A stretch of 64,000 nucleotides of DNA from Aulosira sp. ZfuVER01 (lineage in GTDB: Bacteria; Cyanobacteriota; Cyanobacteriia; Cyanobacteriales; Nostocaceae): assembly GCA_034530615.2 (NCBI GenBank), contig JAVRCV020000046.1, positions 1 to 64,000 of the forward strand. The letters are read 5' to 3'. Position 1 is the stretch's first letter. Each line of letters opens with the position of its first letter. The position numbers were made by a program, and so were the translations under genes. Below the pieces are notes generated by a model. It was not told the DNA's origin and did not search any database. It worked only from the letters and a program-made list of their open reading frames with translations. Of this stretch, positions 38,752 to 62,836 are shown piece after piece.

Positions 38752-41202
38752 TTATGCCACAGTAATTGCTTCAATTTTTTTAAGTTCTTCTACTAGCCTA
38801 GTAGCTTCACCTATTAATTTTTGCAGATATATACTTTTTGTTTGGAATTCTTTCTCTAATTTTTTAATTTCTTCTTTTTCTACATGATCTCCTTCTTTTT
38901 GCATTTGAATTTCCTCTTTTAATTTTTTCACTTCTTCTGTTCTTTTGTGTAAAATTTCTCCTAGCTGTTTAAATGCTTCAGTTATTGATGTCTCTTCTGT
39001 TAATTTTTGGGAGTTTTCTGCTGTTTCACTTGACTCTTCTATTAATTTCCAGATTATTCGATTTAATTCACTCCTCTTGGCTGCTTTTCCTTGTAGTATC
39101 TCAATTTTTTTCTCTAATCTTTGTTTTTCTTCATTTAGTATCTGAATTTCTTTATTTTTATCCTGATTGATTTTTTCTGTTATTTCATTTATTTGAAAAA
39201 GGTTAAAATTGTTGAACTCTTCCTCTTTAAATAAACCTTTTACATATTCTATAGATTGATAATCCTCACTAATAACAAGTTCTATCTTTTGTTTGAGCAA
39301 GCGATCAATTTCATACTGTTGAAGAACTCGATTCAAATCTGATTTAGCCTCATCTATATTTCCTTTAAATATATTGACCATACCACGAAATATAAAACAC
39401 TCTTCTTTATCAGGCGCTAGGCTAATAGCTTGAGTTAAACTCTCCTTTATGTGATTTAAATTAGGAATTTCCTCTGTTTTCCATCTAACTTCAAAAATAT
39501 TATTTTTAGATATGAAGCAAAGTAAAGGAAACATTCCTTGATATACCAGTGCGATCGCACGACACTTGTCCTCAAGCAAAGTAACTTGTAGCAGTGCCGA
39601 AAGTACCTCTACTATCTCACCCGAATGGTTTTGTGCAAGACTTTTTAGCCCATTGAGAAACTGCTGACTCCACCGTTTTATATCTTCTGAGCTAGTAGCA
39701 ATCCCTGCCATGTTCATGGCTTCTGCCCATTCCTGTGCAAACTTTTGTGAAGTATCTAACGCCATTAGCCAACCATTTAATGCCATCCTCATCTGCTGCA
39801 AGGGATTTGCACAAAGACTGTGATACAACCACTCCAAGGTGTACTTCTGCCAGGTTTCATTCTTTAGCTGCTGTGTATCGGTTAAACCTAGACTTTTTCG
39901 GAGTTCATCATAATACTCAGCTAACTGTTTATGCTGCTTTGTCCATGCTTGAGGCGATATCCGACGTTGATAGCGCAACATCTGTTCTCGTACAATGTTG
40001 TGATACTGCCATCCTTCGGGATGTTCTACAACAAAAGAGCGCTCCTTCAACCACTCAAATAGATCATTTACTGCTGACTCATCCACCAGCAACGCTAAAA
40101 TATCTCGATTCAACATTCTTGGAAGCGCAGCATCTAAAGCTAACTGACGCTTTGTTCCATCCGATTCCCATTTTAGAAAACGCTCTACCGCTTCCTCACA
40201 GGGATCAACTACCACATTTATACTATTTGGAGTTGCCTGCGCCATCATCCCAATCAATAATGGCAATCCCCCTGATGAAAGTCGCCAAATCTCCTGAATC
40301 ACTGCCTCATTTGTAATTCCCCTATTGGTTAGATATTGCCGTGTTTCATCTTGTGTAAAAGGCTCTAATTCTGACCGAGCGATGCAGCTTTCCATGTCAG
40401 CCCAAATATTTCGGCTCAGGGGATCTCGTCCTGCAATTACTAGTAGAAAATTTGGTGTTAGATATCCATAGCGGTCATCCAAAAGAGAACGTAGCCAATC
40501 GTCTAAAAAAGCTCCTGTTTGCTCATAAGTATCCAACAGCAAAACTACAGTCTGCTTCTCTGCAATTTGGTTGAGATCCTCCAAAAATAGCGGAGTCAAA
40601 ACCTCCAGTGGTTCCCGTAGTAACAACACTTCGTCTTTGTTAGTCAATTTGCGAGCAATGAACGCTAGATACTCACCTGCTTTGTTCGCTACTGCATCTG
40701 TTTCGACCAAATCCAGCACCGCCCTGCTGCCGGGAATCGACTTCGCTGCACCTAAACTTGCCTTAGTCAACATACGCCCCAGTCCTGCTGCAAATCCTTG
40801 AGGAGCATCCGGATCTGCTTCCAGTTCTTGTCGCTTTTGACGGTATGTTTTGTAGCGTTCCTGAAACTTGTCAAACTTATGCCCCTGTTTTTCAAAATCC
40901 ATTGCTAGCCGATAAAGTGCTTCTGGCAAATCATCTACTCGGTTACTCTGTGCACCCTCATCTACGTAAGCAATCAATTGCTTCAAGTCTTCTGCAATTC
41001 TGCAAAACTGCTTTAGTAAAGTTGTTTTACCAATTCCGCCTTGACCGGAGATATTGAATATCACCTGATTACGCTGGTCATAGGGCGTGCTTAGAATAGC
41101 TCGAAACAATTTAATCTGAGCTTCTCGACCAATGAACGACTTTTGAGTGGCGCGATGAGCGCGCATTTCTTTCCAACTACGGGGGCGGTTGTCTTTCGAC
41201 AT
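38752..41202 (-). CDS. STAND/AAA ATPase with TPR and a charged coiled-coil tail
   Basis: FIGRE, GQGGIGKTT, LLLDTYE, SGGLPL; E/K-rich C-terminus. Confidence 0.8.
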   Translation of the reverse strand: MSKDNRPRSWKEMRAHRATQKSFIGREAQIKLFRAILSTPYDQRNQVIFNISGQGGIGKTTLLKQFCRIAEDLKQLIAYVDEGAQSNRVDDLPEALYRLAMDFEKQGHKFDKFQERYKTYRQKRQELEADPDAPQGFAAGLGRMLTKASLGAAKSIPGSRAVLDLVETDAVANKAGEYLAFIARKLTNKDEVLLLREPLEVLTPLFLEDLNQIAEKQTVVLLLDTYEQTGAFLDDWLRSLLDDRYGYLTPNFLLVIAGRDPLSRNIWADMESCIARSELEPFTQDETRQYLTNRGITNEAVIQEIWRLSSGGLPLLIGMMAQATPNSINVVVDPCEEAVERFLKWESDGTKRQLALDAALPRMLNRDILALLVDESAVNDLFEWLKERSFVVEHPEGWQYHNIVREQMLRYQRRISPQAWTKQHKQLAEYYDELRKSLGLTDTQQLKNETWQKYTLEWLYHSLCANPLQQMRMALNGWLMALDTSQKFAQEWAEAMNMAGIATSSEDIKRWSQQFLNGLKSLAQNHSGEIVEVLSALLQVTLLEDKCRAIALVYQGMFPLLCFISKNNIFEVRWKTEEIPNLNHIKESLTQAISLAPDKEECFIFRGMVNIFKGNIDEAKSDLNRVLQQYEIDRLLKQKIELVISEDYQSIEYVKGLFKEEEFNNFNLFQINEITEKINQDKNKEIQILNEEKQRLEKKIEILQGKAAKRSELNRIIWKLIEESSETAENSQKLTEETSITEAFKQLGEILHKRTEEVKKLKEEIQMQKEGDHVEKEEIKKLEKEFQTKSIYLQKLIGEATRLVEELKKIEAITVA

Positions 41203-41400
41203 TGTAAATTATGACAATAGTGAAGCATATTTTCTCTTCACCAGTATGTCTTATGATTCCGTAGACTATCTAGTAAAATCCTGAGATGGAAAGATGCTCA
41301 CCCAAACTCGGCAGCGAAAGGATTGAACCAAAGCTAGTCTCTAACCAAACGGCGATCGCAACCAATTTAAATTTTAGTTTATGGCGATCGCTATTTAAGT

Positions 41401-49840: not shown

Positions 49841-51379
49841 TTATTCACGATTCATCCGAATTAAATCCGTCAAAATGCTATCCAAACTACCATTAACTTG
49901 AATTTTCTCAATCTTCTCAGCAATTCGCTCTAATACTTCCAACTCCTTCAAACGCAACGCCACAGGGTTATCCTCCATCACCTTGGCAGTATTCAACATA
50001 CTGCGAGTAGCAGCAGTTTCTTCACGACGGCGGACTACATTTGCTTGGGCGGCTTTTTCCGCTTCCACTACTTTGCTCAAAATAGTCTTAATTTCACCGG
50101 GGAGAATAATATCTTTCACCCCAACTGAATCTACTTCAATTCCATAGTCTGCGGTTTTTTGGCGAATGTAGTCAGAAATACTTCTATCAATCGCGCCTTT
50201 ATCCTCCAGTAACGCATCCAGAGTTCTTTCGCCAACTGCACCACGCAAAGCAAACTGTAACTCTTTGTATAAATACCCAGCAATATCCGATAAGCCATTT
50301 TTAGCTCTTAAGGGATCGAGTATACGGAAGCCAGCAGTTAAGTTTAAGCGCAAAGGCACTTTATCCTTAGAGAGGATATCTTGACCAGATACTTCCATAG
50401 CTTGTTGGCGCAGGTCAAAAACTTCCGTTTGCAAAGAACGCCCAAACACCCACCATGCGTGCTTTCCTGGCTGGAGTTGTGTTTGAAATTCTTGATTAAC
50501 GTACAGCAAACCAACGTATTGTGATGGTACTTCGCAAATATGCAGACTACTGCGGCTAAGAGTAAAAGCCTCTGGTAAACCCGAAACTAACTCAGCAACT
50601 AAGCGAGATGACAACTTAGCATCATTGCTGATGTCAATCACCTCTACCTCAACACCTTGCCAGAAGAGTTTGCGACTACATGGCGCTAGGATCGAAATCA
50701 CCTTACCCTGATAGCGCACAATTGCTACTTGCTGATTCTGTAATTGGACTATTTCACAGTAAGCAGCTACAAACTCCGGATGTCTCTCAATTAAGACATC
50801 TTCCAAAGGAAAGTTTGGATTGGGTAAAATCCGGCTGAGAGTCTGGAGAGAAACATCCCTATTCACAGACCAAAAAGCATACTCACCTGGTTCTAATGGC
50901 CGGACAAAGTTACCTTGCACGTACAGCAAGCCAATCTCATACTCAGAAATTTGGAACTTCTTGATACCATTTAAGGCAATTCCCCGTACTTGCTGCACAA
51001 ACTCAGCAGGTAATTCCAAGCTTTCTTGCAAGTTAAACAGATGAGTTTCTACCTCAATAAAACCACGCCAAAAAGCACGTAATTGATTTGGCCCAACACT
51101 AATCCAATTTTGTCCCAAGCGCACTAAAGCAGCCTGATTGAATCCTGTCCGCACGACTATTAAGTATTGCTGTAACGCTGAACTATGATTGCGCAGCAAC
51201 AGTTCTAGGTTTTCAATCTGAGCTTCTGGTTGGTTAAGATCGTAAGTTTTTACTTGCCAATGCCAACCAACATAAGTATAAGTACTAGGCTGCAAGATTT
51301 TTTTAAAATCACTGCGGTAATATAAAATTCCAATTTCGTTAGGTTTGATATAGAAAGTTTTCCACATAGAAATTTGCAT
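49841..51379 (-). CDS. Slipin (SPFH/band-7) family protein with repeated N-terminal beta units
   Basis: GQDILSKDKV, LDALLE, GVKDIILPGE, RREETAATRS, ALRLKELE; start 51379 or 51367. Confidence 0.88.
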   Translation of the reverse strand: MQISMWKTFYIKPNEIGILYYRSDFKKILQPSTYTYVGWHWQVKTYDLNQPEAQIENLELLLRNHSSALQQYLIVVRTGFNQAALVRLGQNWISVGPNQLRAFWRGFIEVETHLFNLQESLELPAEFVQQVRGIALNGIKKFQISEYEIGLLYVQGNFVRPLEPGEYAFWSVNRDVSLQTLSRILPNPNFPLEDVLIERHPEFVAAYCEIVQLQNQQVAIVRYQGKVISILAPCSRKLFWQGVEVEVIDISNDAKLSSRLVAELVSGLPEAFTLSRSSLHICEVPSQYVGLLYVNQEFQTQLQPGKHAWWVFGRSLQTEVFDLRQQAMEVSGQDILSKDKVPLRLNLTAGFRILDPLRAKNGLSDIAGYLYKELQFALRGAVGERTLDALLEDKGAIDRSISDYIRQKTADYGIEVDSVGVKDIILPGEIKTILSKVVEAEKAAQANVVRRREETAATRSMLNTAKVMEDNPVALRLKELEVLERIAEKIEKIQVNGSLDSILTDLIRMNRE

Positions 51380-51751
51380 AGAGAATTTAGGCAGTCGTAG
51401 CCGACGCAGAAGTTTGATAAAGACATTTATAACTTTGGCGTAGGGAATTTTCCTTAGTTAGTTTTATTTCCACATCGTATATAAACAAGAGATATAGCCA
51501 CTTGTGTTACATTGCTTGTTGCAGCTATAAATAGAGTTAATTGCTATCCAAAATATAATATACTACATATAATACATTATATTTTTAAACTCTGCAAATG
51601 TCGTTTTTTACAGTTCAGCTGCGGGATAATTGCTCTTCAAAACTGGATTAAAGAGGTAACGCACTCATGAGTTTCCTTATGAGCGACGCTGCTGCTACTT
51701 TTTCTAAGACTATCCAAAGGCAATCCAGAAAAAGATAACATCTCTCAAATA

Positions 51752-51852
51752 TAGAAATCATACTTGAATCTTGCTAAGTATACTTAGAAACAAACCTTTG
51801 TATGGCAAGCTTCTAGCTAGTCTGGTTTTTCAGAAATCAAATATGAGTCCTA
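51752..51852. mobile_element. 101-bp MITE with TA duplication (IS630-like behaviour)
   Basis: caaaTA[tagaaatcatacttga…tcaaatatgagtccta]TAtgcc; copy B has the empty site caaaTAtgcc. Confidence 0.85.
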
Positions 51853-52112
51853 TATGCCATTCAGTTTGCCAGTTCCGCCAAAGTAGGATGTGTCAAACGA
51901 AGGGACATACTCAAGTTAGGGAGGAAACAATTGCACAGGCTTCTTAGCTGTGACTACTGAGTATAACGAGTATAAACAGTAGCATAACAACAACATCGCA
52001 GAGTTTACTAAACTAAAACAGATTTTGTCCGTTTCGGCTTTTTTCCCAGTCGCGTAAATGCGAAGTAGCCTTGTCCCTAACAAGGTGCCCGTACCCAGGG
52101 CGAGGGTGTGTT

Positions 52113-52186
52113 TGCTGAAATTACAGGAGTTTACCTGTTACTGATCGCCGATACAGCGATCGCTCTACTAAAAGAGTTAACTTTCA
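52113..52186 (-). pseudogene. Degenerate tRNA, homologous to the tRNA-CAT at 55155-55229
   Basis: tgaaagt-ta-actc…gagc-gatcg…acagg-taaact-cctgt-aatttca: acceptor, D and T stems still recognisable; T and anticodon loops are broken. Confidence 0.6.
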
Positions 52187-52382
52187 AAGGGTAGTAACAT
52201 ATCGTTCCACGGTATACACTCAATCCAAAGGTTGGCGTACCAGTTGGGCATACAGAACCCGCACTAATGCTTTGCAAAATGTCTTCCTACCTCGCTACTC
52301 AATGTAACTCAAGCAAATATGAGGAGACACGCGGTAATTACTTAATGAAATACTCACTTCAAGAGCCAAAGGTTTGAAATTA

Positions 52383-54398
52383 TTAAGCAGCAAGCTGCCT
52401 TTGCTGGTGTAATGGAAGTGAAATCACAAATTCTGTACCTTTACCAAACATAGAATTACACTGTAATTTCCCTTGATGTTTTTCAGTGACAATTTGATAA
52501 CTGATAGATAAAGCCAAGCCTGTACCTTTACCAACAGGTTTAGTAGTAAAAAAGGGATTAAATAATTGTTTTTGTAAAGCTTCAGGAATTCCAACTCCAT
52601 TATCAATAATGCGAATAATTATTTGTTGGTCAATAGTAAGTTCAGTTTGAATACGAATTTGACCTTTACTTTTTCTTGATGAAGTAGACGCGCTTTCTTC
52701 ATTATTAGTTACGGGACGATGAATTACGAATAACTCTTCTATGGCATCAATTGCATTTGTGAGAAGATTGATAAACACCTGATTGAGTTCTCCGGCGTAG
52801 CATTCTACTAGTGGCAGGTCAGCATATTCTTTGATAATTTCAATAGCTGTACGATCTGGTGTAGCCTTGAGGCGGCTTTCTAAAAACATTAGTGTACTAT
52901 CGATACCTTCATAGATATTTACCATCTTCATTTCTGCCTCATCTAACCGTGAAAAGTTTCTCAGAGATAGCACAATTTGTTTAATTCTCTCAGCACCGAC
53001 TTTGATCGAATTCAGCAACTTCGGCAAGTCTTGCATTAAGAAATTAAATTCGATTGCTTCTTCCTCATCTTGAATTTCTACTGCTGGCTGGGGATAGTGA
53101 TGTTGGTAAAGTTGCAGTAATCTGAGCAAATCTTGGATATATTCATGGGCGGGAGTAATATTACTATAAATAAAGCTAACTGGGTTGTTAATTTCGTGTG
53201 CTACTCCTGCTACTAACTGACTTAAGCTAGACATTTTTTCAGCTTGAATCAATTGCGCTTGAGTTTGTTGTAATTCTCGTAAAGCTTGCTCAAGTTCTTG
53301 CGCTTGCTGTTGCAGTGTTTCTTGTTGTTGACTAAGCAACACAACCTGCATTTTTGCTTGTTGAGATAGTTGTATTTGTCGCCAAGCGATAATTGCTGCG
53401 ATTCCAAGCAATCCACCCAATATAGAAGCAAGTAAGTTCAGTGCGTATAGTTGAGATTCAATGTTTTCACGCGGTATAACTAGAGCTATTGACCAATTCG
53501 CTTGTTTGAGATGACCATAAAGAACATATTTGTTAGTGCCATCAATGGAAATAAGTTCTATTCCTTGCTGTTGCTTCACCATTAGACTAGCCAGTGCCGC
53601 TAAGTTAGGATCAGTTGACTCTAGAAAACTAGGAGCAGGTTTTTCTTGTGTTGACATCAACGCTGGATTGGGATGAATAATTGGCTCTCCCTTAGAGTTG
53701 AGTGCAAATGCATAACTACCATTACCGTAATGTAATCTGTTGACTACTTGAGTAATTCGATCTACCTTTAAGCTACCGTTGATAACTCCAATGGGACGAC
53801 TGTTAAGGTCATAACTTTGGCGAATAGGAGAAGCGATCGCCACAGAAGGAATTCCAGTAGTCCGACTGATGAAGGGATCTGATATATTGACTTCTCCTGC
53901 CATTGCTTTTTGAATAAAATCCCGATCCTTGTTATTGGTATCTGCTTTACCTACCTCAGTGTTGTAATAGGAACCGTTCGGCAGCGATACTGCCATTTTA
54001 GAAAATTCCCCAGTGCGCTTAATTTCTGCGTTTAAATATGGTTGAATAACTTTCCAATCTAAAGAACGCGCCACATCTGTATTAGCAATAGTTTGAATTT
54101 CAATAGAGCAAATTGCTAACCATTGATCGATCTCATCAGTTCCTTGACGAACCTGAAGCAGGGCTTTTTCCTGAAGTTGTTGAACAATTAACTCTCTGAC
54201 TATCAAGTAGCTAGCAATACCAATTACCCCTATTGCTAAGGTAGAGCCAATCAAAATCAGTGGTGTTTTCAGATTAGGCAGTTGCTTTTTTGGCACAGGT
54301 ATGGATTGCCTAACTTTGAAAAATTCACGTAATAGTAGATAAGGCATGATAGTCAGCAGTGAAAAACTATAGGTATACTTGTTACCTATAGTTCCCAT
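52383..54398 (-). CDS. Cache-domain sensor histidine kinase
   Basis: Two TM helices around a Cache domain; AHEINNP, QVFINLLTNAIDA, DNGVGI, PFFTTKPVGKGTGL. Start may be 54347. Confidence 0.9.
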   Translation of the reverse strand: MGTIGNKYTYSFSLLTIMPYLLLREFFKVRQSIPVPKKQLPNLKTPLILIGSTLAIGVIGIASYLIVRELIVQQLQEKALLQVRQGTDEIDQWLAICSIEIQTIANTDVARSLDWKVIQPYLNAEIKRTGEFSKMAVSLPNGSYYNTEVGKADTNNKDRDFIQKAMAGEVNISDPFISRTTGIPSVAIASPIRQSYDLNSRPIGVINGSLKVDRITQVVNRLHYGNGSYAFALNSKGEPIIHPNPALMSTQEKPAPSFLESTDPNLAALASLMVKQQQGIELISIDGTNKYVLYGHLKQANWSIALVIPRENIESQLYALNLLASILGGLLGIAAIIAWRQIQLSQQAKMQVVLLSQQQETLQQQAQELEQALRELQQTQAQLIQAEKMSSLSQLVAGVAHEINNPVSFIYSNITPAHEYIQDLLRLLQLYQHHYPQPAVEIQDEEEAIEFNFLMQDLPKLLNSIKVGAERIKQIVLSLRNFSRLDEAEMKMVNIYEGIDSTLMFLESRLKATPDRTAIEIIKEYADLPLVECYAGELNQVFINLLTNAIDAIEELFVIHRPVTNNEESASTSSRKSKGQIRIQTELTIDQQIIIRIIDNGVGIPEALQKQLFNPFFTTKPVGKGTGLALSISYQIVTEKHQGKLQCNSMFGKGTEFVISLPLHQQRQLAA

Positions 54399-54409
54399 TC
54401 CATGAAATT

Positions 54410-54666
54410 TCAGAACATTTTGATTTCATATTTTTCGTTAATACGTTTAATTTGTTTTTGAAACTCTGTACCTTTTTGGGGATTGACCATTGCCACAAAG
54501 TTTGCAAATCCCGTTATTGACGCAATGAGGTTACGTGAGTTGCCCCAATGCTAATTTCCATCGCTGCCGCAATTTCTTCGGCAGTGTTGTATAGCTCTAA
54601 GCCATAATTATTCAAGCATTCGATGTTTCCTTGTTTGCTATTTTTCAAACCCATTGAAACATCCTC
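54410..54666 (-). pseudogene. Internally deleted remnant of a retron-type reverse transcriptase
   Basis: EDVSMGL…YGLELYNTAEEIAAAMEISIG(QL) joined near 54536, with a frame change, to NLIASITGFANFVAMVNPQKGTEFQKQIKRINEKY…*. I recall these as the segments flanking the RT core in cyanobacterial retron-like RTs. No YADD core remains. Confidence 0.65.
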
Positions 54667-55054
54667 TTAAAATATTTACTAATTTGTAATATGCAAACTC
54701 AATTTTATTTGAAAACTCTGCAAATGCAGGTGTTTACAGTTCAGTTGCGGACAAATACATCTCCAAAACTGGATCAAGATTGCTGCTACTTATCCTTAAA
54801 CTACCCAAGGGCAATCTAGAAAAAGAAAACAGCGCTCAAATATGCCGTTCACTTTGCCAGTTCCAGAAATCTAGATCTAACAAGAGAAGGGACATACTCA
54901 AGTTAGGGAGAAATGCATTTGCGCTAGCTTCTTTACTGTTACTACAGACATCACATCGTAATGAGCAGTAGTAAGCACCTACATCACAGAGTCTTTACTA
55001 AAGTTAAATTAGCTACCGTGACGGGGTAGTGTCTTTTGACCCGGACAGGGTTTG

Positions 55055-55127
55055 TGGAGCAGAAAGTGGATTTGAACCACTGACATTTGGATACTAGTCC
55101 AACGAGCTACCACTGCTCTATTCTGCA
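55055..55127 (-). tRNA. tRNA-like gene (fMet-like D and T arms, 6-nt anticodon loop, encoded CCA)
   Basis: gcagaa/ttctgc acceptor, gagc-agtggta-gctc, ttgga-ctagta-tccaa, agtgg-ttcaaat-ccact, cca. Confidence 0.6.
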
Positions 55128-55154
55128 AATTTGCCTTTTTCCCTAGACAAATGT

Positions 55155-55229
55155 TGGTCGAAAGTACAGGAATCGAACCTGCAACCAATCGATTATGAGT
55201 CGATCGCTCTACCAGTGAGCTAACTTCCG
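55155..55229 (-). tRNA. tRNA with CAT anticodon (Ile2 or elongator Met), encoded CCA
   Basis: cggaagt/actttcg, gctc-actggta-gagc, atcga-ctCATaa-tcgat, gcagg-ttcgatt-cctgt, a-cca. Confidence 0.88.
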
Positions 55230-55231
55230 GG

Positions 55232-55301
55232 AGTTTGATGTAGGACTCGAACCTACGCCCCACCGATCGCTTCGGCTGCTCTACCACTGAGCTAATCAAA
55301 C
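55232..55301 (-). tRNA. tRNA-like gene with a 5-nt anticodon loop
   Basis: gtttgat/atcaaac, gctc-agtggta-gagc, gccga-agcga-tcggt, gtagg-ttcgagt-cctac. Confidence 0.65.
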
Positions 55302-55416
55302 AATGGAGTAGTGACGCATTACTCGGCGATATACGCTCAATCCAGAGGTTGGCGCACCAGTCGGGCATACTGAACCCGAACCATAGCTTTGCTTATGTAT
55401 TACTATTCCACTACTT

Positions 55417-55460
55417 AATGTAACATAGGCAAATCTTAGGCGGTAGTGAATAATTACTTA
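55417..55460 (-). promoter_or_regulatory. Putative promoter of ncRNA copy B (-10 TACATT, upstream TAAGTAATTA box)
   Basis: The same two motifs at the same spacing precede copy A (52301-52306 and 52335-52344). Confidence 0.5.
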
Positions 55461-55619
55461 CTTCCAATATTTAGGCAAAAACCATCACATCTCATGGCTG
55501 ATGATACATGACGTAGCTCAAGTTTTAGTAGACTGTTCGGCAGAAAACTGGGATGCGGAAATTGCTACCCATAAAATAGGTAGCAATCTTTGGTGTTCTA
55601 CACCTGATAAAAATTAAGG

Positions 55620-55643
55620 AAGGGTGAGAAATAACCCACCCTG
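55620..55643 (-). terminator. Hairpin downstream of nifH
   Basis: agggtg…caccct immediately after the nifH stop. Confidence 0.4.
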
Positions 55644-55652
55644 TCACATTAT

Positions 55653-56720
<1,068 letters not shown>

Positions 56721-62470: not shown

Positions 62471-62836
62471 TTCATCCTCCCGAATCACATACAGTGTAGA
62501 GAGTTAGATCCGGAAAGGTGTCACGGGCTTATTCACATAGCCGAAAATATTTCTCATTGGTCTAAACATAACACTTGAATCTGTAAGGAGATTGGTAGGA
62601 CTCTACAGGTCGTTATAACTACAAGTTCATATCTTTGTAAGCTCTGCTGCTAAATGATTGTGGCTTCTAATTTACCCTAAAAAAGTTAATTATTATCTAG
62701 GGGCAGCTTTATCCATAACCCTAGAGCGTAATACAAATTTAACGTAAAATTAATATTTAGCTTATACTACAAATACTACTGCAAAGCTTATTCTTTATAT
62801 ATCTTTGTATTTCTTTATATTGTTTTCTGATATTTG

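Follow-up and report, generated by a model that had tools for sequence, protein, structure and literature searches.

A tRNA-carrying structured RNA in two copies beside a slipin gene of the cyanobacterium Aulosira sp. ZfuVER01

The subject of this analysis is a stretch of 64,000 nucleotides (nt) from the genome of Aulosira sp. ZfuVER01 (GenBank assembly GCA_034530615.2, contig JAVRCV020000046.1, positions 1 to 64,000), referred to here as the window, and within it two colinear minus-strand loci that carry an RNA element and lie near the gene for slipin, a predicted soluble SPFH/Band-7 protein of 512 amino acids (aa). The element is a conserved structured RNA made up of a 5' domain of ~110 nt, one to four modules shaped like transfer RNAs (tRNAs) and a 3' domain of ~350 nt, with covariation in all three parts. 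Our preferred interpretation, which we hold to be probable while keeping considerable reserve, is that both loci are copies of one structured non-coding RNA (ncRNA), the cyanobacterial form of a tRNA-like RNA that accompanies slipin genes, and that this RNA acts by the mechanism proposed below. The conserved RNA-protein gene pair is real and of a kind that has been predicted in silico; its mode of action is proposed here.

Architecture of the RNA and its two copies

Pairwise MAFFT alignment of window positions 51560-52380 with 54690-55500, both on the minus strand, was colinear with a mean column identity of 73%, and these are the only two copies of the element in the 8.03-Mb genome, the remaining matches being ordinary tRNAs. 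The initial annotation of this DNA had described 51589-52345 and 54715-55460 as colinear minus-strand paralogs conserved with no shared open reading frame (ORF), with three tRNA-type units in one copy (copy B) and a single decayed unit in the other (copy A). Our results agree on each count, since the sequence blocks that it quoted are present in the alignment, the units were found by ARAGORN, Rfam and alignment between them, and there is no ORF common to both copies, the sole long one (55009-55368) merely crossing the tRNA units of copy B. Its broader proposal of a large structured RNA carrying tRNAs and linked to an SPFH protein is likewise upheld by the covariation of the 5' and 3' domains and by the slipin genes that lie downstream across relatives, order and phyla. 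The features of the two copies and of the adjoining slipin gene are:

about 55425 to 54709, minus strand: RNA copy B, with three tRNA-type units
55417..55425, minus strand: putative extended -10 promoter of copy B (TGTTACATT), a conserved TGnTAnAnT
55302..55412, minus strand: 5' domain of copy B, in which a long helix (P1-P3) closes a junction bearing two hairpins, P4 (7-nt loop) and P5
55230..55301, minus strand: unit 1, Rfam tRNA 55.9 bits, 5-nt anticodon loop, also called by ARAGORN
55152..55229, minus strand: unit 2, Rfam tRNA 68.1 bits (55155-55229), CAT anticodon, normal cloverleaf, encoded ACCA end
55055..55127, minus strand: unit 3, Rfam tRNA 53.5 bits (55056-55127), 6-nt anticodon loop, encoded CCA, 'tRNA-???' in ARAGORN
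55010..55054, minus strand: degenerate fourth tRNA-like piece of copy B, with one helix resembling a D-arm (GUCC/GAC) and one 5-bp stem that carries a 7-nt loop (CUACC..GGUAG)
54709..55009, minus strand: remaining 3' domain of copy B, with a hairpin of variable length, an invariant CCCUAACUUGAGUAUGUCCCUUC block and long-range helices
54718-54739, minus strand: terminal hairpin of copy B, followed by AGAGUUUUC
about 52316 to 51585, minus strand: RNA copy A, with one decayed unit and a repeat insertion
52185..52316, minus strand: 5' domain of copy A including a -10-like block, 104.8 bits with covariance model R1 (see below)
52105..52184, minus strand: decayed unit of copy A, with damaged D-arm and T-loop, of the unit-2 lineage and aligning to unit 2 of copy B
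51585..52104, minus strand: 3' domain of copy A, split by a repeat at 51749-51855, with its terminal hairpin at 51592-51613
51749-51855: dispersed repeat of 107 nt, resembling a miniature inverted-repeat transposable element, which interrupts the copy A 3' domain
51560..51598, minus strand: putative slipin promoter with TrcR-type operator, between copy A and slipin
49841..51379, minus strand: slipin, 512 aa, soluble SPFH/Band-7 protein (Pfam Band_7, AlphaFold2 model)

Seven divergent orthologs of the 5' domain take up the same fold, in which a long helix closes a junction bearing two hairpins. A covariance model of this domain (R1; 131 positions, 34 pairs) gave 57 matches in the 58 sources searched and scored 137.5 bits for copy B over 55302-55432. 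Pair counts are inflated in the two alignments that were fitted to this model: in the model alignment itself (A4), 89.3% of cells were paired versus 30-46% when the partner column was slid, and 27 of the 34 pairs had changed on both sides, values that none of 500 shuffles reached, while in a cross-phylum alignment of 45 hits (A8), which takes in weak hits up to E=1, 88.1% of cells were paired versus 33-43% slid and 31 of the 34 pairs had changed on both sides. RNAalifold run on the raw MAFFT alignments recovered the structure in part, the outer helices needing model-based realignment. The TGnTAnAnT block is conserved upstream of the 5' domain in 36 orthologs (alignment A3), and transcription of copy B would start near 55410. 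At one locus of an uncultured cyanobacterium, a metagenome-assembled genome (MAG; L122, 463-2078), three tandem 5' domains (R1 28.8-32.6 bits), each with tRNA-like units, precede one slipin gene.

The 3' domain was assessed on plain MAFFT alignments, and the pair counts are inflated here as well, because the structures were chosen from the same alignments that were tested: the proximal block (A6, 26 sequences) had 94.1% of cells paired versus 27-48% slid, with 16 of 23 pairs changed on both sides, and the distal block (A5, 25 sequences) had 88.8% paired versus 36-44% slid, with both-sided changes in 18 of 40 pairs. At its 3' end the RNA has a hairpin, CUGUAAA..UUUGCAG, and then AGUUUU.

Between these domains lie the tRNA-shaped modules. 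ARAGORN and Rfam RF00005 agree in calling all three units of copy B. Among the genome's 74 tRNA calls unit 3 alone has an odd loop, and unit 2 is at most 73% identical to any of the genome's genuine tRNAs. The unit of copy A, at about 52105-52184, was called by neither ARAGORN nor Rfam at E<=1. Both helices of the fourth piece of copy B covary in A6 (UA to CG and back in one; CG, UA, GC and AU in the other), some lineages retain a long variable arm and a T-arm at this position, and in Betaproteobacteria a motif related to the fourth piece follows the last unit.

Across 55 elements ARAGORN found 90 units, with none in 6 elements, one in 16, two in 28 and three in 6. These units have 29 different 'anticodons', of which CAT is the commonest (21/90) and those with A34 are frequent (aat, att, aag, act, aga, atg), and the anticodon loop has a length other than 7 nt in 15 of the 90. 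In the unit-2 lineage (41 members) the acceptor, D and T arms hardly vary, and variation is greatest in the anticodon; roughly three-quarters of the members encode ACCA, as counted by eye on the alignment. The genome's own tRNAs encode CCA in 7 of 43 cases outside its tRNA array and in 13 of 28 within it, this array being a 28-gene cluster of the L-array type (C32:178953-181569). The modules thus do not combine a 7-nt anticodon loop with an anticodon conserved among orthologs, as decoding tRNAs would, and with anticodon loops that drift or shrink they are not decoders. Since the arms and CCA end are conserved while the anticodons drift, selection appears to keep the tRNA body and its 3' end rather than decoding, a pattern that would fit recognition by RNase P, by 3'-end enzymes or by another reader of tRNA shape.

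Searches of Rfam 15 returned only tRNA matches, both in the window at gathering score and in 51300-55700 at E<=1. No other family (GOLLD, ROOL, OLE, HEARO, raiA, retron msr, YrlA and others) reached its gathering score, and 20 loci from several phyla yielded only tRNAs plus one unrelated FMN riboswitch.

Linkage to slipin genes and the slipin promoter

Of the 15 contexts taken from relatives, 13 have the element upstream of a 512-aa SPFH gene and on its strand. Parts of it are present at all 29 slipin loci sampled across the order; R1 matches 27 of these, and the two R1-negative loci end before the 5' domain. At the loci of distant orthologs (56-76% protein identity) the element was found in 11/11 by nhmmer and 10/11 by R1, and two loci of a shorter, 390-aa SPFH type had no element by either method. 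Among 151 genomes of the order, R1 matches 20, of which 18 are exactly those with a full-length slipin; in the remaining two slipin is broken or there is none. RNA and slipin are always on one strand in the loci sampled.

The slipin family comprises 539 representative clusters at E<=1e-30, in length classes of about 510 and about 380 aa. We examined 80 slipin loci from named genomes, 23 of them cyanobacterial by sequence and 57 from other groups (Burkholderiales, Pseudomonas, Competibacter, Thiotrichaceae, Methylococcaceae, Deinococcales, Chloroflexota and more). R1 was positive in 21 of the 23. One cyanobacterial-type locus is labeled as an Acetobacteraceae MAG, and its slipin is 80% identical to that of the window. 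At least 700 nt of upstream sequence was available for 55 of the 57 non-cyanobacterial loci, and 37 of these 55 have a same-strand tRNA-like call at most 900 nt upstream of the protein match (median gap 347 nt). R1 reached E<0.01 in 11 of the 57, always directly 5' of the tRNA-like unit. In an alignment of the betaproteobacterial loci the shared 5' core is a GGGG/CCCC hairpin with a 7-nt loop, followed by CCGGUGCGC..GCGUAUGCCGC, and a CCGGUCGAAAGACCAC motif after the last unit matches the cyanobacterial CCGGGUCAAAAGACAC. Slipin relatives in Proteobacteria and Deinococcales are preceded by a recognizably homologous 5' core with a tRNA-like unit. Many of the non-cyanobacterial loci run upstream into long same-strand tRNA arrays. 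At eight proteobacterial loci (L124, L129, L147, L149, L151, L172, L176 and L177) the slipin module sits at the 3' end of 5-13 normal-looking same-strand tRNA genes, which suggests that it travels with such arrays.

Most genomes have one RNA copy, which abuts slipin. In the window the order on the minus strand is a nifH-family gene, a terminator-like hairpin, copy B, ORF scraps, a histidine-kinase gene, copy A and slipin, such that slipin (49841-51379) lies downstream of copy A and not of copy B, which is followed by the short ORF scraps and then the kinase gene. The same split or duplicated arrangement occurs in relatives G003, G008 and G055, and at the G003 locus (L046) the order of element, kinase, remnant and slipin is identical. 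Copy B is the more ortholog-like of the two, since its 5' domain shares 88-92% identity with those of relatives in the genus, versus 75-78% for that of copy A. The 107-nt insert of copy A has dozens of copies in related genomes at 80-93% identity, together with many more 30-nt fragments of its ends. The earlier description of the system as partly decayed is therefore correct for the tRNA unit of copy A and too sweeping otherwise, since copy B is intact though displaced and copy A has kept its slipin gene and promoter.

Copy A and slipin are joined by a putative promoter whose -35 element, TTGCAG (51592-51597), is the 3' half of the terminal hairpin of copy A. The -10 element, TATTAT, begins 17 nt after it and is overlapped by tandem 9-nt repeats, TGTATTATA and TGTAGTAT (51560-51576), with an exact TGTAGTAT at 51560-51567; a promoter-like call was obtained at 51598-51569. 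The block thus has two tandem 9-nt repeats of the TGTAGTAT type over the -10 box, as in the TrcR regulon, and we assign 51560-51576 as a putative TrcR-type operator on the basis of this sequence. The repeat, with at most one mismatch, follows the hairpin within 40 nt in 31 of 55 listed elements (25 of them exact), a count in which two elements that yielded no sequence for the scan are taken as misses. Six displaced copies that were scanned and have no slipin downstream (copy B of the window, one each at L053 and L046, that of L048 and both of L052) have no repeat, and the promoter after the hairpin is degenerate in copy B. Readings of the promoter block as a palindromic operator, or as an NtcA or LexA box, were dropped in favor of the published tandem direct repeats. 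Further exact TGTAGTAT sites lie at 39092-39099 (plus strand) and 62764-62771 (minus strand). A second conserved block, TATAAATGT..TTATCAAAC..CTGC..CGGCTA..CTGCCCAAATTATCT, occupies 51380-51460 before the slipin start, here and in orthologs, and may be a structured 5' untranslated region (UTR) or a second promoter.

TrcR is a ribbon-helix-helix repressor of Anabaena PCC 7120 that binds TGTAGTAT overlapping -10 boxes, and in a trcR mutant alr0739 is up 72-fold and alr0740, the slipin gene, 42-fold; in electrophoretic mobility shift assays TrcR shifts an alr0739 promoter fragment (PMC10272220). For this regulation a pair of 9-nt repeats in tandem, covering the -10 box and transcription start, is reported to suffice (PMC8421152); the main text of that paper, figures apart, has no mention of Band 7, SPFH, stomatin, HflC, prohibitin or YdeI. 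Chloramphenicol raises alr0739 and alr0740 along with rtcB and a 26-tRNA operon, and besides RtcB the regulon has GNAT enzymes and HNH nucleases among its members (PMC10272220, Table 1). According to a further report alr0739 is a homolog of YdeI and alr0740 of slipin, the two being co-induced with the tRNA array and rtcB (PMC9938897). These reports fit the guess, made from the window alone, of a role in translation stress. At several loci the RNA is separated from slipin by an inserted ORF of ~190 aa, which has the place of alr0739. The RefSeq tag RS05570, between alr0738 and alr0739, is absent from the supplementary mRNA table of the TrcR study (PMC10272220), which suggests a non-mRNA gene between these two.

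Proposed mechanism, rivals and related systems

The only Pfam domain found in slipin is Band_7 (PF01145, 107.2 bits versus a cut-off of 23.6, residues 283-454), and its best sequence match in the PDB is stomatin of Pyrococcus (PH). No membrane helix is predicted, because hydropathy over 19 residues never exceeds 0.95. An AlphaFold2 model built from a 60-sequence alignment (mean predicted local distance difference test score 90.8) has five 5-stranded beta repeats (6-47, 73-116, 139-182, 208-249 and 279-322), the SPFH domain and a long helix. In Foldseek searches of this model stomatin ranked first, limited to the C-terminal 220-250 columns, and major vault protein (MVP) chains aligned over 580-640 columns (E 2e-13 to 2e-9). 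VIA-align gave Z 17 against stomatin SPFH domains and Z 10-12 against MVP, the latter with model residues 75-492 placed on MVP 323-712 at a root mean square deviation (rmsd) of about 15 A. The Pfam search of slipin returned no Vault-repeat family. Based on the whole-length alignment with MVP, the domain order of the predicted model is vault-protein-like, slipin being at most a candidate member of that family.

In the mechanism that we favor, the RNA would be transcribed from its own extended -10 promoter, as a 5' domain, tRNA-shaped modules and a 3' domain ending in a hairpin and U-run. The modules would be read as shapes by tRNA-binding machinery, with RNase P and the 3'-end tRNA enzymes cutting or docking at them, and the folded RNA, either in its entirety or as 5' and 3' parts set free from it, would be a cofactor or scaffold of a slipin oligomer. 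Slipin itself would be made only when translation is blocked, its promoter overlapping the terminal hairpin of the RNA and carrying the TrcR-type TGTAGTAT repeats, as would be in keeping with its rise in Anabaena alongside the RNA ligase RtcB and the spare-tRNA array. In this genome an ancestral RNA-slipin unit would have been duplicated and then split, leaving copy B intact and now facing the histidine-kinase gene with a dead promoter, and leaving copy A with decayed tRNA modules and a repeat insertion, its slipin and operator retained.

Several points weigh against this interpretation. The binding of the RNA by slipin is a proposal, and the promoter, ends and processing of the RNA are all postulated, a consensus promoter scan having made no call at the RNA's own -10 block. 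The inflated pair counts of A4, A5, A6 and A8, and the weak hits admitted to the last of these, lessen the weight of the covariation, and a profile of the cyanobacterial 3' domain found nothing in the non-cyanobacterial loci with nhmmer. Exact TGTAGTAT occurs 3 times in the window versus 1.79 expected by chance; the motif alone is therefore not significant, and its weight comes from its conserved position. The matches to rtcB in this genome are on contigs C36, C63 and C50, none of which adjoins the window, and the ~160 nt upstream of rtcB have no clear TGTAGTAT repeats in that short stretch. In addition, long ncRNAs were excluded from the published trcR transcriptome analysis (PMC10272220).

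An alternative is that the element is purely a cis-acting leader or processing cassette, forming the 5' part of the slipin transcript or of a joint transcript of tRNA array and slipin, in which the tRNA shapes only mark sites of cleavage, the 3' domain is a regulatory 5' UTR and no product acts in trans. Such a role would suit the constant same-strand arrangement and the non-cyanobacterial loci, at which the last tRNA-like unit is only 236-629 nt before the slipin start, the conserved region reaches a Shine-Dalgarno-like AGGAG and the upstream sequence so often continues into tRNA arrays. We nevertheless consider it unlikely, because in cyanobacteria the RNA and slipin are separated by a conserved promoter with a TrcR-type operator, and in several genomes by an inserted, putatively YdeI-type gene; displaced copies that have no slipin, such as copy B, keep an intact 5' domain (137.5 bits) and modules; and a helix-rich 5' domain upstream of the cleavage sites has no obvious function in a leader. 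The separation of the modules' conserved arms and CCA ends from their 29 anticodon types could instead mean that they are decoys by which the RNA sequesters or senses tRNA-targeting toxins (anticodon nucleases or acetyltransferases) or ribosome-stress factors, slipin being merely a co-regulated neighbor. The presence of RtcB, GNAT enzymes and HNH nucleases in the same regulon (PMC10272220) is in its favor. It is very unlikely in our estimation, as is the accompanying view that the drifting anticodon loops reflect an arms race: loops of 5 or 6 nt (the 15 of 90 units not having 7) would be poor mimics for anticodon-specific enzymes, and the decoy reading leaves unexplained the large covarying 5' and 3' domains and the strict cross-phylum link to one SPFH subfamily.

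Two further explanations have much lower standing. The units are tRNA-like, some are decayed as in copy A, and tRNA arrays are found near many proteobacterial loci, all of which could be expected of a neutral remnant of a decayed tRNA array conserved by recent common descent. We disfavor this reading as highly improbable, based on the compensatory changes that preserve helices across families and phyla, the near invariance of the unit 2 arms while slipin diverged to 56-86% identity, and the co-occurrence with slipin in 18 of the 20 R1-positive genomes. GOLLD RNAs are associated with tRNAs and similar in size to the element, and the initial annotation had placed one copy upstream of slipin and the other upstream of a remnant of a reverse transcriptase (RT), naming GOLLD, ROOL and retron RNAs for comparison. 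The first placement holds for copy A. The second fails, as neither Pfam nor NCBIfam gave an RT match for the ORF scraps at 54382-54733. Given the Rfam results above, and since in every lineage the partner that is conserved is slipin, it is scarcely credible that the RNA is of retron type or GOLLD class and works with an RT.

The preferred reading of a slipin-accompanying RNA has a precedent. The abstract of the 2016 study by Burroughs and Aravind reportedly refers to SPFH/Band-7 scaffolds with 'a novel tRNA-like molecule'. As described in a later preprint, that study predicted a tRNA-like RNA beside a Band-7 protein and RtcB, the RNA was proposed as a counterpart of the Y RNA that partners Ro60, and as of 2018 it had never been experimentally validated (bioRxiv 10.1101/312249). 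The Band-7-associated tRNA of the preprint resembles our element in that a tRNA-like RNA gene adjoins a Band-7/SPFH gene across phyla, with a tie to RtcB, RNA damage or translation stress (bioRxiv 10.1101/312249); here copy A and slipin, like the orthologous loci, are adjacent on one strand, and copy B has the strong tRNA resemblance (RF00005, 53.5-68.1 bits). It differs in that the preprint describes a single tRNA-like RNA, whereas in our element the tRNA shape occupies the center of a ~700-nt RNA with covarying flanks, one to four modules and decayed anticodons. Adjacency to rtcB, which is frequent rather than defining in the preprint, is absent here, although in Anabaena rtcB is co-regulated via TrcR (PMC10272220). 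The initial annotation's term 'undescribed' is thus too strong for the tRNA-like RNA as such, and apparently holds for the large flanking domains. We found no description of this RNA in the literature on tRNA-like RNAs, SPFH proteins, alr0739/alr0740 or bacterial vault proteins, and four features are apparently new: the 5' and 3' domains with their covariation, the cyanobacterial form with several modules, the TrcR-type operator where the RNA meets slipin, and the vault-like fold of slipin.

Other known systems share parts of this arrangement. YrlA with Ro60/Rsr, in the rsr-yrlBA-rtcBA operon, is a tRNA-mimicking ncRNA beside a ring-forming protein and is linked to RtcB and stress; however, the Rfam YrlA model scored only 24.6 bits here versus a gathering score of 69, the partner in our case is an SPFH protein instead of Ro60, and our RNA has several times the size of YrlA. 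The L-array and the rest of the TrcR regulon have the same tandem TGTAGTAT repeats over a -10 box, and slipin (alr0740) is a published member (PMC8421152, PMC10272220). Unlike the modules described here, with their drifting or shortened loops inside a structured RNA, the tRNAs of the L-array are aminoacylated decoders (PMC8421152, PMC10272220), and TrcR has been called functionally equivalent to RtcR by its authors (PMC10272220). The eukaryotic MALAT1/mascRNA offers a parallel in which tRNA-like shapes within a longer ncRNA recruit RNase P or RNase Z to define flanking RNA ends, as they would here if such processing takes place, and there is no relation in sequence. The vault particle (MVP and vault RNA) is comparable in its beta repeats, SPFH 'shoulder' and long helix, and in having a dedicated small-RNA partner gene; slipin differs in having no Pfam Vault repeats and in the rmsd of ~15 A over the multi-domain alignment, its likeness being that of a predicted model, and the true bacterial MVP homologs are a different set of proteins (bioRxiv 10.1101/872010).

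These comparisons led us to consider, as a quite unlikely extension of the mechanism, that slipin forms a bacterial vault-like soluble cage with the ~700-nt RNA as its dedicated component, a stress-induced ribonucleoprotein that would hold or present damaged tRNAs or tRNA-like substrates for repair by RtcB or for quarantine. Were this so, the cage would be a prokaryotic counterpart of vaults or of Ro-Y RNA particles and might connect SPFH cages with vaults in evolution. Any particle formed by the RNA and slipin would count as a new ribonucleoprotein in the bacterial response to RNA damage. The locus is also of interest because around its tRNA-shaped core lies a far larger RNA with covariation, one that is missing from Rfam, and because the RNA-slipin unit can be followed from cyanobacteria into Proteobacteria and Deinococcales. 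Since slipin is strongly induced in the TrcR regulon of Anabaena PCC 7120, published mutants and inducing conditions exist, and the locus makes the pairing of Band-7 protein and tRNA-like RNA testable in a model organism.

Neighboring genes

With PADLOC neither slipin nor the kinase matched a defense system, apart from a chance hit of 15.8 bits. The gene between the two RNA copies is intervening DNA, outside the RNA-slipin module:

52383..54398, minus strand: dCache histidine-kinase gene (Pfam dCache_1, HisKA, HATPase_c)

Elsewhere in this genome a second RtcB gene is in two same-strand pieces ~800 nt apart (C63:39344-40060 and 40878-41246; L099, L101), which match family positions 154-426 and 2-151; it may be interrupted by an insertion, an intein or an intron. 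Upstream of copy B is a lone nifH equivalog (TIGR01287, 468 bits) at 55653-56654 on the minus strand, after which the RNA, and not nifD, comes next, with a terminator-like hairpin at 55621-55642 between nifH and copy B. This nifH-RNA neighborhood recurs only in relatives G003, G008 and G011.

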